Positions 3,789 through 25,561 of a stretch of DNA of 64,000 nt are shown here, in pieces. The notes under the pieces are model-generated. The model saw only the letters and a program-made list of their open reading frames with translations. It ran no database searches and had not been told where the DNA came from. Numbering within the stretch: the stretch's first letter is position 1; each line of letters opens with the position of its first letter. Made by a program: the position numbers and the translations under genes. This DNA comes from Patescibacteria group bacterium (GTDB taxonomy: Bacteria > Patescibacteriota > Patescibacteriia > 2-01-FULL-39-33): the NCBI GenBank assembly GCA_041650895.1, contig JBAZKF010000001.1:573181-637180 (forward strand), in the 5' to 3' direction.

Positions 3789-4406
3789 TCAATTATTCTC
3801 AATTAATTCTTTTACGGCCACTAGCGCCGACGGCAAGTCCGTAACGCCGGCATCATCGCTAAAATGCCCCTTTTCATGTTCCACGATCGTTTTGGCGTTT
3901 AAATTTTTCTCAAACAATTCCTTATCCCCTAAATCAACATCAGGATCATTATCGGAAAAAATAGCGATGATCTTTCCTGCCCGCTGTTTGATTCTATCAA
4001 AATCCATCAAAGTTTCCAGCCAAGGATGCGCAATCTCTTTTTCTTCATCAGTGCTAAGGTAGGGCAATCTGAACCAGCCAGCCACACAGACGATGCCGCC
4101 GATCGGCTTTGGCAATTGCTCAACGTAACGCAATATTGCCTGACAACCAATACTATGTCCGACAAAATACGTATCTTTATCCGGGTCAACGACAGCGTCA
4201 GCAAGCTGATTAACCCAATCGGCTATCGTAGGATTCTCGGGATGAGGCATGGATAGACTCTGAACAATAATCCCTTCTTCTTCCAGTTTGCTTTTTAGCC
4301 AGGGAAGCCAGCAATCTTGCGGTGAACCATCCCAACCATGGACGATAAAGACTTTAGGAGCCATAAATTTATTAATTAATGCGGACGAGAGGACTTGAAC
4401 CTCCAA
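3789..4406 (-). CDS. Alpha/beta serine hydrolase, YdeN/RBBP9 family
   Basis: IVHGWDGSP..WLPWL, nucleophile elbow GHSIGC; size 205 aa typical of family. Confidence 0.7.
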   Translation of the reverse strand: MEVQVLSSALINKFMAPKVFIVHGWDGSPQDCWLPWLKSKLEEEGIIVQSLSMPHPENPTIADWVNQLADAVVDPDKDTYFVGHSIGCQAILRYVEQLPKPIGGIVCVAGWFRLPYLSTDEEKEIAHPWLETLMDFDRIKQRAGKIIAIFSDNDPDVDLGDKELFEKNLNAKTIVEHEKGHFSDDAGVTDLPSALVAVKELIENN

Positions 4407-4464
4407 GGCCTTGCGACCACAGCCACCTCAAGGCTGCGCGTATACCAAATTCCGCCACGTCCGC
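4380..4464 (-). tRNA. tRNA-Leu (anticodon GAG), long variable arm
   Basis: Acceptor gcggacg/cgtccgc, anticodon stem cagcc/ggctg, loop ttgaggt, long variable arm, T-loop ttcaagt. Confidence 0.85.
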
Positions 4465-4494
4465 ACAAAAGCCCGATTGCTCGGGCTTAATGGT

Positions 4495-4851
4495 TTATTT
4501 GACCTGCTTTTCTGATAATTTCTTCTTATAACCTTTGATATAAGACAGCTTGGCGCGACGCACCTCGGCGATCTTAGTCGCCTCAATCTTAGAAATAGCC
4601 GGCGACCAGATAGGAAAAATTCTTTCCACGCCAATACCGCCAGAAGCGATTTTACGCACTGTAATAGTGGCACTTTTACCCTTGCCGCCGTGGCGACCCA
4701 AAATAATGCCTTCAAAAATCTGGATGCGTTGTTTTTCTTCGCCCTTAGTATTTTTCTCTTTGATGATCTGATGGACTTTGACGGTTACGCCCGCCTTAAG
4801 AAGCGGTAAAACCTTCTCATGCCAATCCTGCTTAACATTTAATTTTGCCAT
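4495..4851 (-). CDS. rplS: 50S ribosomal protein L19
   Basis: 118 aa, strongly conserved L19 sequence (FEGIILGRHGGKGKSATITVRKIASGGIGVERIFPIWSP). Confidence 0.9.
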   Translation of the reverse strand: MAKLNVKQDWHEKVLPLLKAGVTVKVHQIIKEKNTKGEEKQRIQIFEGIILGRHGGKGKSATITVRKIASGGIGVERIFPIWSPAISKIEATKIAEVRRAKLSYIKGYKKKLSEKQVK

Positions 4852-20823: not shown

Positions 20824-22485
<1,662 letters not shown>

Positions 22486-22518: not shown

Positions 22519-22552
22519 AAAGAAAGACCTCGGATAATTCCGGGGTCTTTTT
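22519..22552. terminator. Bidirectional terminator between groEL and small peptide gene
   Basis: agacctcgg-ataatt-ccggggtct hairpin with flanking T/A runs. Confidence 0.6.
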
Positions 22553-22567
22553 GTACTTTTATAATCT

Positions 22568-22693
22568 TTATGAATAGGACTTGCAGGCCGCCCTGCACGA
22601 ACACTTACCGCTGCCACCGCAATGCGGACATTTATACGTATGCTCTGGCCATTTTATAGTGCCACTTCCTCCGCAGTATTGATATGTAGCCAT
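22568..22693 (-). CDS. Small Cys-rich peptide (41 aa, 7 Cys; SCIFF-like/zinc-ribbon-like), candidate RiPP precursor
   Basis: MATYQYCGGSGTIKWPEHTYKCPHCGGSGKCSCRAACKSYS; strong RBS aaggaga 6 nt upstream; immediately downstream of rSAM/SPASM gene; manual translation (below ORF-track cutoff). Confidence 0.45.
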   Translation of the reverse strand: MATYQYCGGSGTIKWPEHTYKCPHCGGSGKCSCRAACKSYS

Positions 22694-22739
22694 ACGGATA
22701 TCTCCTTTTGTTGTTTTTTACAAACTACCCAAAAAATAA

Positions 22740-23897
22740 TTAAATCTCCCGCATGATTCTTTCTTTTATCTCTGAAAAAATTCTCTGATATTGCCGACAA
22801 TTATAATCCGGCTTATTTAATCCTCCATTCAAAATTCCCTGTAACGGACAACCGCCATTGCAAATCTTTTGATACTCGCATGATTGACATGTCTTGAGGT
22901 GCTTTCCTCTTGCCAATAGTGCTAATCTTGATGGATGATTTATAACCTGCTTCCATGAATCATTAACAAGATTGCCATATTTAAAACTACCGCTACCGCA
23001 GAAACGTCCGCAAGGATAGACATCGCCATTACAATCAACACCGATAAATGATAACTGGCAATTTTCAAAAAAAATACATTCGATCGGCCTTCCTGTCAAA
23101 ATGGGGACGATATATTTCCAAAGGGCAGCGCGATCGGTAAAGTGACCCTGATCAAGCCAATATCTAAATAACAGTATTTGGGAATCAGAATAATTATTCC
23201 CTTCAGTCATAATTAAATCATAGGCCTCGGCCGCGCGCCCGATCGGCGATACGGATACCAATTTATATCTTTTTTTCTCTTCGTGCATGAATTCAATAAT
23301 CTGTTCTATCCATTGAACGTTCAACCGACTAATAACCACCAAATAACCGTGTTGTACCTCATGTCGGGTAAGTATTTCCGAACCGCGTTTAATTGCTTCA
23401 AATGCCCCTTGGGAATTGGGGAATACTCGTGTTTTGTTAGTAATATCTCGAGGACCGTCAATACTTAAACCAACGCCGAAACCATGGTCTTTAAAAAACT
23501 TTGCCCATTCATCGCTAATCAAGGTGCCATTGGATTGCACCACATTGGCTATGTGATAACCGCCAGCTAATAATGGTTTTTGTATTTCCACCACTTGACG
23601 ATAAAAATTCAATCCGGCCAAAAGCGGTTCTCCGCCATGCCAAATGAATTTCGTGTAACTGTCAATCTGCCTTCCGACTATCTTCTCAATTATTGTCCCA
23701 ACTTCGGTAATGGTTAATGTCCTGGCTTTCGGATCTCCAGCTGAACAATAAACACATCTTAAGTTGCAGTTTCTGGTGGGTTTAATAACCACTGTCAGAT
23801 CTTTCATTGCTGTTTCCATTTTTTTTCTCCTAATCGCAATAATCGCCGTGACTAGGACCGCCAGAATCGTTATGGGCCTCATAATCGGTATGATCAC
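22740..23897 (-). CDS. Radical SAM/SPASM domain enzyme (anSME/peptide maturase-like); likely true start at METAMKD (about 23819)
   Basis: CNLRCVYC (CxxxCxxC) and C-terminal SPASM cysteines CQSCEYQKICNGGC. Confidence 0.75.
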   Translation of the reverse strand: MIIPIMRPITILAVLVTAIIAIRRKKMETAMKDLTVVIKPTRNCNLRCVYCSAGDPKARTLTITEVGTIIEKIVGRQIDSYTKFIWHGGEPLLAGLNFYRQVVEIQKPLLAGGYHIANVVQSNGTLISDEWAKFFKDHGFGVGLSIDGPRDITNKTRVFPNSQGAFEAIKRGSEILTRHEVQHGYLVVISRLNVQWIEQIIEFMHEEKKRYKLVSVSPIGRAAEAYDLIMTEGNNYSDSQILLFRYWLDQGHFTDRAALWKYIVPILTGRPIECIFFENCQLSFIGVDCNGDVYPCGRFCGSGSFKYGNLVNDSWKQVINHPSRLALLARGKHLKTCQSCEYQKICNGGCPLQGILNGGLNKPDYNCRQYQRIFSEIKERIMREI

Positions 23898-24054
23898 TAT
23901 GATGGTGCCACTTATCCTGAAACAATTGGGCGGTTCCGGGTGTGGCTATTAATGGATCAACTTCTAAAGCACCCATCTGTTTTAGATGTTTGATTAATTC
24001 TTTCAAATATGGATTTCTAACTCTTTCTTCTTTAATTTTATCAAGCAGCGGCAT
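23830..24054 (-). CDS. Small His/Asp-rich peptide (74 aa), candidate precursor/partner, translationally coupled to rSAM gene
   Basis: C-terminal WHHHSDHTDYEAHNDSGGPSHGDYCD; overlaps rSAM start region. Confidence 0.35.
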   Translation of the reverse strand: MPLLDKIKEERVRNPYLKELIKHLKQMGALEVDPLIATPGTAQLFQDKWHHHSDHTDYEAHNDSGGPSHGDYCD

Positions 24055-24202
24055 ACTATAACCTCCTATTAGTTGCTTTGTTTTTGGATTGTAAAAGAAC
24101 TCCCGTACACTTTAATATTATAAACAACCGGCTACCGATAATCCAATAAAAATTGATTAACTAACACTTTGCTCTAATTTTAAATAAAATACCTTATTAT
24201 TT

Positions 24203-25045
24203 TTGACAATATTCTTGTCATTTTATATGATGAAAGATATGAAACACAAAAATACCCCGTCTTTTCTGGAACTCCAGCCGGAAGAAACAAAAATCATTCA
24301 GGCGTTTAACGACGAGAAGAGTTTGACGCCGACTGCCCTGTCCCGCCAAGCCGGCGTCAAAAGAACGACGGTTAACTTCCTATTGAACAAATTATTAGAG
24401 CGGGGGATAATCAAAAAAACAAAAATCGGCGGGCACTTTGAATGGCGGCTGGCCGATGAAAACCATTTGGCGGAAAAAATAAATTCGCTGTACGGCTTTT
24501 TTAATCTGACTTTATCCAAGGCCTTAATCAATCTGCCGGATATCGGCGTGGAAGTTTTTAAAAGCCAGGCGGCGATTCTGGACGCTTACCGCCAGTCGCT
24601 GAAAACCAACAAAAACAGCCGCGTCTATGCCATCCAGGGCAACAAATCAATCAAAGCGCAAAAATCCCTAAGCTCTGATTATTTAAACGACATTCAAAAC
24701 CAATTCAAACAGAAAAAAATTATTATTGAAGGCATCGCCGGAGAAAGTTCGCTGGAATACTTCAACGACCTGCCGCTTTATTTGTTGAAAACTTATGAAA
24801 ACCGTCTGACCGTAATGTATTTGATCAGCGACGAACTGATTGACTTTGACCTGGATATTTTAATCCTGGATAAAGAAGTGATTTTAATAAACTTTGAGAA
24901 AAAAATCGTGGTTAAGATAAAAAACGACAGCATCAGATTGGCGCTTAAGGCGCTGTATGAAACCATGAAATTTTCCGCCCAAAAAATTGACTTGAATAAT
25001 TACCTGAAAAACCTAATCAAACAAAAAACGCCGCTAACCCAATGA
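24203..25045 (+). CDS. Winged-helix DNA-binding regulator with C-terminal domain of unknown function
   Basis: N-terminal wHTH (SLTPTALSRQAGVKRTTVNFLLNKLLERGIIKK); divergent from rSAM cluster. Confidence 0.45.
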   Translation: MTIFLSFYMMKDMKHKNTPSFLELQPEETKIIQAFNDEKSLTPTALSRQAGVKRTTVNFLLNKLLERGIIKKTKIGGHFEWRLADENHLAEKINSLYGFFNLTLSKALINLPDIGVEVFKSQAAILDAYRQSLKTNKNSRVYAIQGNKSIKAQKSLSSDYLNDIQNQFKQKKIIIEGIAGESSLEYFNDLPLYLLKTYENRLTVMYLISDELIDFDLDILILDKEVILINFEKKIVVKIKNDSIRLALKALYETMKFSAQKIDLNNYLKNLIKQKTPLTQ

Positions 25046-25126: not shown

Positions 25127-25561
25127 TTACAATGCTTCGATGGCTTGCCGCACAAAGAAACGGTCCTTCTCCTTCTCCGCCTCGCTCAACTCATCGTAGG
25201 GAACCTTCTGACTGTCCGGAGCCCAGGCGCCGTTCCGTTCCAGCCACTTCTTGTGCTGGATAGCGGACACGGCTTCAATGAAGTCATCATCCAAAGCGAC
25301 GTCCTGGTCAATCGCGGCCAGGACGCTGTCCACCGCGACTTCGGCGGCCGCCTTGTTTTCGGCCTGCCAGTCAGTCGGCAGTTCTTCGTAAAGCAACGAG
25401 GCGATGTCCACCTCCGCGATACCGCGTGCCAAGAAAGCCGGATCCTTGGTCTTCTTCATCCGCGGTTCGTTGCCCTTGGCGGCCCGATACTGTTTTCGCC
25501 AATCCTCATGCCTCGCGCTGGCCACTGCCAAAACCATCCGTTCAAACTTATCCATAACCAT
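25127..25561 (-). CDS. Hypothetical protein (144 aa), anomalously GC-rich
   Basis: ORF track; GC clearly above neighbours. Confidence 0.4.
   Translation of the reverse strand: MVMDKFERMVLAVASARHEDWRKQYRAAKGNEPRMKKTKDPAFLARGIAEVDIASLLYEELPTDWQAENKAAAEVAVDSVLAAIDQDVALDDDFIEAVSAIQHKKWLERNGAWAPDSQKVPYDELSEAEKEKDRFFVRQAIEAL

Follow-up and report, generated by a model that had tools for sequence, protein, structure and literature searches.

A precursor-maturase pair in a Patescibacteria genome with aromatic-x-Asp triplets and a predicted three-residue cyclophane product

We analysed a 64,000-nucleotide stretch of DNA from a Patescibacteria group bacterium (GenBank assembly GCA_041650895.1, contig JBAZKF010000001.1, positions 573,181 to 637,180 of the forward strand; hereafter the window), in which a minus-strand operon encodes a 74-amino-acid (aa) peptide, a radical SAM/SPASM enzyme and a 41-aa Cys-rich peptide, with a regulator gene transcribed divergently from it. 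A first-pass annotation of this DNA had described a locus of the kind that makes peptides synthesised on the ribosome and modified after translation (RiPPs), with a radical SAM/SPASM maturase, a peptide gene immediately upstream and a divergent winged-helix-turn-helix (wHTH) regulator, all of which are present, and had taken the 41-aa peptide for a SCIFF-like substrate of the enzyme. That interpretation of the locus as a radical SAM RiPP locus is right in kind and wrong on which peptide matters: the 74-aa peptide was mentioned, but the aromatic-x-Asp triplet periodicity of its C-terminal part was overlooked. The three open reading frames (ORFs) of the operon and the regulator gene are not chance features, judging from the homologues that we found for the enzyme and for the 74-aa and 41-aa peptides. 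The genes and gene parts in question are the following:

23830..24054, minus strand: gene of the 74-aa precursor peptide, with an AGGAGG ribosome-binding site (RBS); NCBI MFA5124764.1, annotated as hypothetical
23911-24054, minus strand: leader of the 74-aa peptide, residues 1-48
23833..23910, minus strand: core of the 74-aa peptide, W49-D74, with the predicted crosslink sites
22740..23819, minus strand: radical SAM/SPASM maturase, 359 aa, lacking a RiPP recognition element (RRE), as read from Pfam, NCBIfam and an AlphaFold (AF2) model
22568..22693, minus strand: gene of the 41-aa Cys-rich small protein, last gene of the operon, with an AAGGAG RBS; unannotated

NCBI has annotations for GroEL, for the enzyme, as "radical SAM protein", and for the 74-aa ORF, as "hypothetical"; the 41-aa ORF has none. 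Both small ORFs are present as first read, the 74-aa one with the C-terminus and the 41-aa one with the sequence then reported, each with its own RBS. The 41-aa ORF had been placed 43 nt downstream of the enzyme and credited with seven Cys; it does lie close downstream, 46 nt past the stop codon of the enzyme (gap 22694-22739), and we counted six Cys (residues 7, 22, 25, 31, 33 and 37), seven being the number in its relatives. The longest ORF of the enzyme starts at GTG 23897, and from this start alone arises the overlap with the stop of the 74-aa ORF that had been reported earlier. An alternative ATG at 23819 (METAMKDLTVVIKPT...) lies 10 nt past the TAG at 23830-23832 and has GGAG 8 nt upstream, and both the alignment of homologues and the JGI gene call give a 359-aa enzyme; ATG 23819 is the most likely start, hence one that leaves no overlap between the two genes.

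A protein search with the enzyme returned homologues reaching E = 1e-161: about 17 of them form a tight clade with 45-65% identity, beyond which come DynA-like and other SPASM proteins at 37% identity or less. The clade is found in Patescibacteria and DPANN archaea, and all members (18/18) match the model of the dynobactin maturase DynA; no other family has as good an E-value among them (1.1e-91 for DynA). A scan of genome contigs with the enzyme alignment gave, among the matches listed, relatives at 36% identity or less and no member of the close clade; these included the true dynobactin locus (L017) and some distant DPANN and candidate-phyla-radiation loci. We then compared 12 related loci (L081, L083, L085, L086, L087, L093, L094, L096, L097, L098 and two JGI contigs, the latter as gene tables only). 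A homologue of the 74-aa peptide (59-101 aa) is encoded beside the enzyme in all 12, directly upstream of it in 11 and, in L086, as two copies downstream. As precursor and enzyme are found together in all twelve loci, the minimal conserved module is the precursor plus the enzyme. An intrinsic terminator directly follows the 3' end of the enzyme gene in L093, L094 and L098. Neighbouring genes include those of S16, TrmD and RecG in the bacterial loci and those of Alba, S17e and a tRNA-intron endonuclease in the archaeal locus L087, and L096 is a Pacearchaeota contig. The enzyme of L085 (P0128) is 58% identical to that of the window, bacterial members being at 57-65%, and the Pacearchaeota enzyme (P0130, L096) is likewise as close as the bacterial ones; L085 also has a nearly identical precursor, next to a regulator of the double-helix-turn-helix (HTH) type found in archaeal loci. 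Such a distribution of sequences suggests a transfer of the module between bacteria of the candidate phyla radiation and DPANN archaea.

Additional genes were observed in some of these loci. On L086 (2555-3710 and 5040-5608), a 523-kb metagenomic contig, the clade enzyme is preceded by another radical SAM gene together with a Cys-rich ORF of 45 aa (...HDSCGKCECSGTCCG), and two aromatic-x-Asp precursors that lack Cys and end in YSD and NSD follow it. Archaeal L087 (4001-6179) encodes one 64-aa precursor and then two tandem radical SAM/SPASM enzymes (366 and 361 aa). L097 has a 95-aa ORF right after the enzyme (4306-4593), with two ARCxxGxCPSIY motifs that resemble CVMGACPEF in a 58-aa ORF of L088 (7257-7433) and CIIASCPEV in a 62-aa ORF of L089 (2461-2649), two loci that share the window's regulator; the similarity of the small proteins of L088 and L089 to Pfam DUF397 is not significant (E = 0.036). 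Among more distant loci (L074 98-286, L012 3692-3910, L042 387-530 and L007 3771-3938), DynA-like enzymes at 30-33% identity from Woesearchaeota, Nanoarchaeia and Roizmanbacteria have small ORFs upstream with similar aromatic-x-Asp/Asn tails, for example ...NNYSDEDDYEAYPDFDYTEDI, and a Chlamydiales locus encodes a dynobactin-like tail, ...ELYSYKF.

The precursor family comprises 23 members, the window peptide and 22 homologues retrieved by profile search (the scan of metagenomes for precursor loci was run with a nine-sequence subset of these). Its leader, L(I/L)DxI...NPHLKxL(I/V)xxLK...DPLxxTPETAQ, has no match in Pfam or NCBIfam. The consensus of the core is W-H-H-H-T-D-H-T-D-Y-x-x-H-x-D-(spacer)-P-(P/S)-H-G-D-Y-C-D, and the core of the window peptide, read by threes, gives WHH, HSD, HTD, YEA and HND, then the spacer SGGPS, then HGD and YCD, that is, seven in-register aromatic-X-X triplets, with Asp as the last residue in five. 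In the 23 cores together we counted 134 occurrences of [HYWF]-x-D, to be compared with a mean of 38.9 and a maximum of 58 in 2000 composition-preserving shuffles. Aromatic residues stand three positions apart 109 times (44.4 +/- 5.3 expected) and six positions apart 74 times (40 expected), and spacings of 1, 2, 4 and 5 are depleted. Taken core by core, the shuffle p-value is 0.002 or less in 21 of the 23, the other two being P0145 (0.004) and P0147 (0.28).

The first position of the triplets is taken interchangeably by His, Tyr, Trp and occasionally Phe across the homologues, and the number of triplets differs among them (P0136, P0144, P0148 and P0149), with up to seven to nine in a contiguous run. 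The single conserved Cys is the middle residue of the last triplet and is replaced by Ser in L086; the C-terminal D-Y-C-D is the most conserved stretch of the core. All three observations, namely the interchange of residues, the variable number of triplets and the Cys/Ser position, follow from a need for an aromatic ring first and Asp third in each triplet; neither a plain metal-binding tail nor a modification centred on Cys accounts for them.

The enzyme matches both Radical_SAM and SPASM of Pfam above threshold, in agreement with its initial description. Its best NCBIfam match is DynA (NF041298), a full-length one scoring 275 bits (cutoff 450), followed by the anaerobic sulfatase maturase (anSME) model TIGR03942 at 218.7 bits (cutoff 349). 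Further models scored as follows, with cutoffs in parentheses: DarE 154 bits (650), DarW 150 (650), GrrM/OscB 121 (310), AmcB 120 (425), PapB 116 (340), YhhB 94 (445), HxsB 84 (370), the SCIFF maturase TIGR03974 81.9 (425) and FxsB 78 (370). As all NCBIfam scores are under the cutoff, the enzyme belongs to no curated equivalog. The test with TIGR03974 that had been proposed for the maturase thus came out negative, and the 41-aa peptide has no match to a SCIFF model either (E <= 1). Nor did we find a dynobactin system, DynA being under its cutoff and the window core being unrelated in sequence to the WxxN..HxY-type decapeptide at the end (...WNSNVHSYRF) of the downstream precursor in the genuine dynobactin locus L017 (Photorhabdus tasmaniensis), whose enzyme is about 30% identical to that of the window. 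A sulfatase, the expected partner of an anSME, is encoded neither in the window cassette nor in the related loci. As for a His-Xaa-Ser system, besides the low HxsB score, the window has a single radical SAM gene and the repeats are aromatic-x-Asp. The cyclophane synthase models GrrM/OscB, AmcB, YhhB and FxsB are likewise all under cutoff, the models scanned including none for YxdB.

We aligned the enzyme to anSME 4K37 and built an AF2 model on the clade alignment, with a predicted local distance difference test score (pLDDT) of 89.9. The CX3CX2C motif lies at C18/C22/C25, and all eight auxiliary-cluster Cys (C248, C254, C270, C311, C314, C320, C324 and C341) are conserved in the alignment. The model superposes over its full length on anSME with a template modelling (TM) score of 0.86 and on the triceptide synthase ChlB with 0.82, followed by CteB (0.73-0.77) and SuiB (0.62-0.67); the N-terminal RRE present in the last two is lacking in the 359-aa enzyme. 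By sequence, the best match of known structure is anSME (134 bits, or 206 bits with the clade profile), and similarity to ChlB is remote (53 bits). Mapping of the residue that sets X3 specificity (D214 of HtkB, H204 of HaaB; PMC11499958) by way of a homologue from Pandoraea terrae (L050) proved unreliable, residue 214 being Arg there and the upstream peptide being of another type.

The 41-aa ORF had no homologue in a word-indexed search, and an exhaustive phmmer search of 1.84 billion representatives yielded only two, P0150 (45 aa, 78% identity; MAVCQSCGGSGTVKWPTHTYNCEHCGGSGKCSCKACKSYADSDDD) and P0151 (43 aa, 72% identity). Compared codon by codon, the members of this family differ by 12-22 synonymous and 9-13 amino-acid-changing codons, and the ORF is, on this sequence comparison, a real gene under purifying selection. 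Its motifs are YxxCGGSG...CPHCGGSG-KCSCxxxC, metal knuckles of the CxxCxGxG type: P0150 and P0151 have two complete CxxCxGxG motifs about 14 residues apart followed by KCSCxACxSY, and in the window copy Tyr replaces the first Cys of the first CxxC. The Pfam families Anti-TRAP and DnaJ_CXXCXGXG match the family weakly and without significance (E = 0.5-0.6). The first-pass annotation had proposed a test of the co-conservation of both peptides with the enzyme; the 74-aa peptide passes it (12/12 loci). Of the related enzyme loci, 11 retain sequence beyond the enzyme gene, and in none of these (0/11) is the 41-aa ORF or a CxxCxGxG pair found, a lack of conservation that the annotation had itself named as refuting its proposal. 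Conversely, the loci that encode homologues of the 41-aa peptide (L089, L090, L091 and L092) have neither a radical SAM gene nor the 74-aa peptide in the retrieved contigs. The Cys-peptide gene comes after a divergent regulator and a 62-aa ORF in L089, L090 and L091 (the last being cut just upstream of the gene) and is first after the regulator in L092. From these contexts and from its absence at the enzyme loci, it follows that the 41-aa gene is tied to the regulator slot rather than to the enzyme. By its motifs the product looks like a small CxxCxGxG metal-binding protein and not like a SCIFF-like substrate.

The operon lies between groEL and the regulator gene, with the following features:

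20839..22485: groEL, convergent with the peptide operon
22521..22552, no strand: G+C-rich hairpin between the peptide operon and groEL (terminator scan, plus strand)
22557..24167, no strand: cassette without counterpart in the sibling locus L088 (blastn), holding all three minus-strand ORFs
24117..24146, minus strand: candidate promoter of the peptide operon, TTGGAT-18-nt spacer-TATAAT, read from the sequence
24204..24220, no strand: perfect palindrome TGACAAgaataTTGTCA, a candidate operator overlapping the -35 of the regulator
24239..25045, plus strand: TrmB-like winged-helix regulator, 268 aa (MKHKNTPSF), the longest ORF starting from 24203

The hairpin is the terminator that the first-pass annotation had noted after the 41-aa ORF, and it is shared with groEL; its minus-strand stem is followed by TTTCTTTATT, it is kept in L088 and L092, and it is likely a bidirectional terminator. 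The divergent regulator also stands, with a different start from the one first given at 24203. A TTGACA-17-TATGAT promoter occupies 24203-24231 on the plus strand (TTGACA at 24203-24208), upstream of ATG 24239, at which the orthologues start, and this ATG is most likely the true start. In Pfam, the regulator scores 26.1 bits with HTH_24, above the cutoff, and 22.9 bits with TrmB, just under the cutoff of 25.6. The palindrome TGACAAgaataTTGTCA is kept in L088 and L092 and is a candidate autoregulatory operator. The promoter proposed for the operon was not listed by the promoter scan because its -35 matches at three of six positions; its equivalent in L088 reads TTAGAT-18-TATACT, in a region that aligns across sibling loci.

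The order M23 peptidase, groES, groEL, cargo, regulator, 144-aa ORF, rluD and CCA-adding enzyme is common to the window and two siblings, and the cargo between groEL and the regulator differs:

Window, 22557-24167: 74-aa peptide, enzyme, 41-aa Cys peptide
L088, 6734-7515: 58-aa and 127-aa ORFs
L092, 3810-4650: 43-aa Cys peptide, 76-aa ORF

Comparing the window with L088 by blastn, we found flanks at 80-85% identity and homology that ends at 22556 and resumes at 24168, the cargo of L088 being 782 bp. Orthologues of the regulator were identified in L088 (89% identity), L092 (83%), L089 (52%) and L098 (38%), and among the loci with such orthologues the RiPP pair occurs only in the window and in L098, the cargos being different elsewhere. 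The interval from groEL to the regulator is a variable slot for small proteins, probably under the control of that regulator. In the simplest history, the precursor-enzyme pair was inserted between the promoter and the resident Cys-peptide gene. The G+C content of the cassette (0.39-0.42) is that of its surroundings, so composition is no evidence for a recent transfer. Elsewhere the RiPP pair is found beside a second TrmB family (L081, L083 and L094), in archaeal L085, L087, L096 and L097 beside AsnC-type proteins of the double-HTH kind, and in L098 beside the 38%-identical relative of the window regulator. Given these differing regulators, a divergent wHTH protein is a recurrent neighbour that is nevertheless not co-inherited with the module. 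An Rfam scan of the window detected six tRNAs and nothing else. The 144-aa ORF beyond the regulator (25127-25561, minus strand) has a G+C content of 0.54-0.58, compared with 0.35-0.50 in the surrounding 7 kb; it is kept in L088 (147 aa), and its sole Pfam match is a weak one to the RyR domain (E = 0.0025).

Triceptides are peptides in which radical SAM/SPASM enzymes that have no RRE join the ring of an aromatic1-X2-X3 motif to the C-beta of X3. At our locus, a precursor with aromatic1-X2-X3 motifs in its C-terminal core is adjacent to a SPASM maturase with two auxiliary clusters and no RRE, as shown by Pfam, the Cys alignment and the model fold. We therefore favour, with a probability of roughly 0.6, the reading that precursor and maturase form a two-gene RiPP module making three-residue cyclophane rings, either as in triceptides or in a dynobactin-like manner. 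The functional unit would be the 74-aa precursor gene followed by a maturase of the compact type of anSME, DynA and the enzymes that form three-residue cyclophanes (3-CyFEs). The maturase would bind the conserved leader NPHLKxLIxxLK...TPETAQ, and a 5'-deoxyadenosyl radical would take a hydrogen from each triplet, with the beta-carbon of its third residue (usually Asp) as the most likely donor, leaving a carbon radical to be captured by the side chain of His, Tyr or Trp two residues upstream. The outcome would be three-residue rings in series, at most seven of them in the window peptide, with a loss of 2 Da per ring; the sequence is compatible both with a C-C bond, the triceptide type, and with the C-N/C-O type of dynobactin and darobactin. 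The module occupies a variable slot that lies downstream of a TrmB-like regulator and a promoter, both conserved, and is probably expressed under the control of that regulator. The 41-aa ORF would be a resident gene of the slot, encoding a small metal-binding knuckle protein that is co-transcribed here and functionally independent of the maturase. The comparisons establish the gene structure, the fold family of the enzyme, the joint conservation of precursor and enzyme, the periodicity of the triplets and the separateness of the 41-aa gene, while crosslink chemistry, leader binding, regulation and any role of the product are predictions.

Several points weigh against this reading. With none of the cyclophane and dynobactin models does the enzyme reach the curated cutoff, and its anSME score (219 of 349) is near the DynA score, which makes the family assignment one of nearest match. 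The 23 precursors are mutually related, so that the shuffle statistics overstate their independence and the figures are to be read as descriptive. The His/Asp-rich tail could equally be a plain metal-binding sequence, and the type and sites of the crosslinks are predicted from motif and homology. The cassette has no protease or exporter gene, and no tailoring enzyme or transporter is encoded at the locus. The literature searched, made up of reviews and later papers on triceptides and dynobactin, gave no report of a His-x-Asp cyclophane. The locus is probably an uncharacterised cyclophane-type RiPP with an unmodelled precursor family, of which we likewise found no report in that literature; it might instead be an already catalogued cluster, such as one of the YxdB family.

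Other explanations of the same genes have to be weighed. The enzyme might modify the 74-aa peptide by another SPASM chemistry, such as a thioether from Cys73 to an Asp carbon (as in ranthipeptides and PapB), oxidation of the penultimate Cys/Ser (as in anSMEs) or a single C-terminal crosslink, the His/Asp triplets then just binding metal. This would fit with D-Y-C-D as the most conserved part of the core, with a position occupied by Cys or Ser, both of which are oxidised by anSMEs, with the anSME model as second best (219 bits) and anSME as the best structural match, and with the 116 bits of the PapB model, PapB being an enzyme that links Cys to Asp. However, Y-C-D and Y-S-D are themselves in-register aromatic-x-Asp triplets, the Cys is not invariant (YSD and NSD in L086), and DynA outscores both anSME and PapB for the window enzyme and gives the best E-value across the clade. 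Such a chemistry would also leave unexplained the three-residue aromatic periodicity, the interchange of His, Tyr and Trp with Phe, which is no metal ligand, and the variable number of triplets, and we consider it unlikely while giving it some weight.

We regard as very improbable that the enzyme is no peptide maturase at all, that is, an anSME or another SPASM enzyme acting on a protein or cofactor, next to an unrelated His-rich metal binder of 74 aa. Although anSME is the closest solved structure (219 bits with its model) and the enzyme is under the cutoff of every peptide-maturase model, it is also under the anSME cutoff of 349, none of the related loci nor the cassette encodes a sulfatase, and peptide and enzyme are adjacent in every locus, in two domains of life and beside three types of flanking regulator. 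Equally improbable is the original proposal of the 41-aa peptide as a SCIFF-like precursor, alone or with the 74-aa peptide, in which the enzyme installs thioethers. Its place in the operon, 46 nt downstream of the enzyme, behind a strong RBS and inside the cassette missing from L088, and its high Cys density led in that direction. Against this, the peptide is absent from 11 of 11 related loci with downstream sequence, in three of which a terminator comes directly after the enzyme; its homologues occur beside regulator orthologues without a radical SAM gene in the retrieved contigs; TIGR03974 gives 82 bits of the 425 required, the peptide has no SCIFF match and the enzyme has no RRE; and the Cys are arranged as CxxCxGxG metal knuckles.

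If the cyclophane reading holds and His/Tyr-x-Asp rings form, the substrate range of cyclophane synthases would extend to His-Asp, and the product would be a very densely crosslinked peptide. The locus thus holds possibly new His-Asp crosslinks, yet it would be no surprise for the field. It adds a precursor family of 23 members that has no database model and a maturase clade lying between the curated DynA and anSME families, in a compact two-gene system of about 1.3 kb that is directly testable in E. coli. For annotation the consequence is a negative one, the conspicuous Cys-rich ORF not being the substrate. To our knowledge, there is very little documentation of RiPP biosynthesis from Patescibacteria or DPANN archaea, whose genomes are tiny and whose life is spent attached to hosts, which makes any secreted or metal-binding peptide a candidate tool of that lifestyle. 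A bolder version, which we hold to be improbable, is that the module makes an undescribed kind of product, with as many as seven to nine three-residue His/Tyr-to-Asp rings one after another, in which the His-Asp crosslink would be new chemistry and the free imidazole nitrogens and carboxylates would form a pre-organised surface that binds metal or acts as an effector on the host, from a cassette exchanged between ultra-small episymbiotic Patescibacteria and DPANN archaea and plugged into different regulator-controlled slots.

Compared with known systems, the operon resembles that of SCIFF and its thioether maturase ScfB/CteB in combining a radical SAM/SPASM enzyme with a short Cys-rich ORF, and differs from it in that the enzyme has no RRE and the 41-aa Cys peptide is not co-conserved, occurring elsewhere without the enzyme. 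The two CxxCxGxG motifs in relatives of that peptide recall DnaJ-type zinc knuckles and anti-TRAP-like mini-proteins; unlike these, the window copy is without the first Cys and has an extra KCSCxxxC tail, metal binding being predicted from sequence. With anSME (PDB 4K36-4K39) the enzyme shares its length, its fold (TM 0.86) and all eight auxiliary-cluster Cys, but it has no sulfatase partner and is always paired with a small leader-plus-core peptide.

The dynobactin maturase is the nearest curated family and joins aromatic side chains to beta-carbons, forming Trp C6-Asn C-beta and, at i and i+2, His N-tau-Tyr C-beta bonds, the latter in a three-residue His-x-Tyr ring (PMC11002830). In the dynobactin locus L017, in contrast, the precursor is downstream, the leader is another one and the core is a single one of 10 residues; there is no reason to expect an activity against BamA from the window product. 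The initial W-x-H of the window core resembles the aromatic-X-aromatic motif of daropeptides (DarE, DarW), whose maturases and the 3-CyFEs are reported to share an origin (PMC12912966). For minviopeptin, aromatic-X-X motifs rightly predicted a triceptide (PMC12912966). Among characterised triceptide synthases, YxdB links Tyr C3 to Asp C-beta, OscB links Trp C7 to Asn/Asp C-beta, and HaaB (His C2-Ala), YhhB (His or Tyr-Arg) and HtkB (His C2-Lys) likewise form C-beta links (PMC11002830, PMC11499958). The triceptide systems of the 3-CyFEs XncB, OscB, MscB, YxdB, HaaB, YhhB, HtkB, ChlB and MicB have, like the window, a compact RRE-less SPASM maturase beside a precursor with an aromatic-X-X core; unlike them, the window has a new leader family, a dominant His-x-Asp motif in a precursor family with up to seven to nine contiguous triplets, an enzyme far under the cutoffs of the 3-CyFE models, and hosts among Patescibacteria and DPANN archaea.

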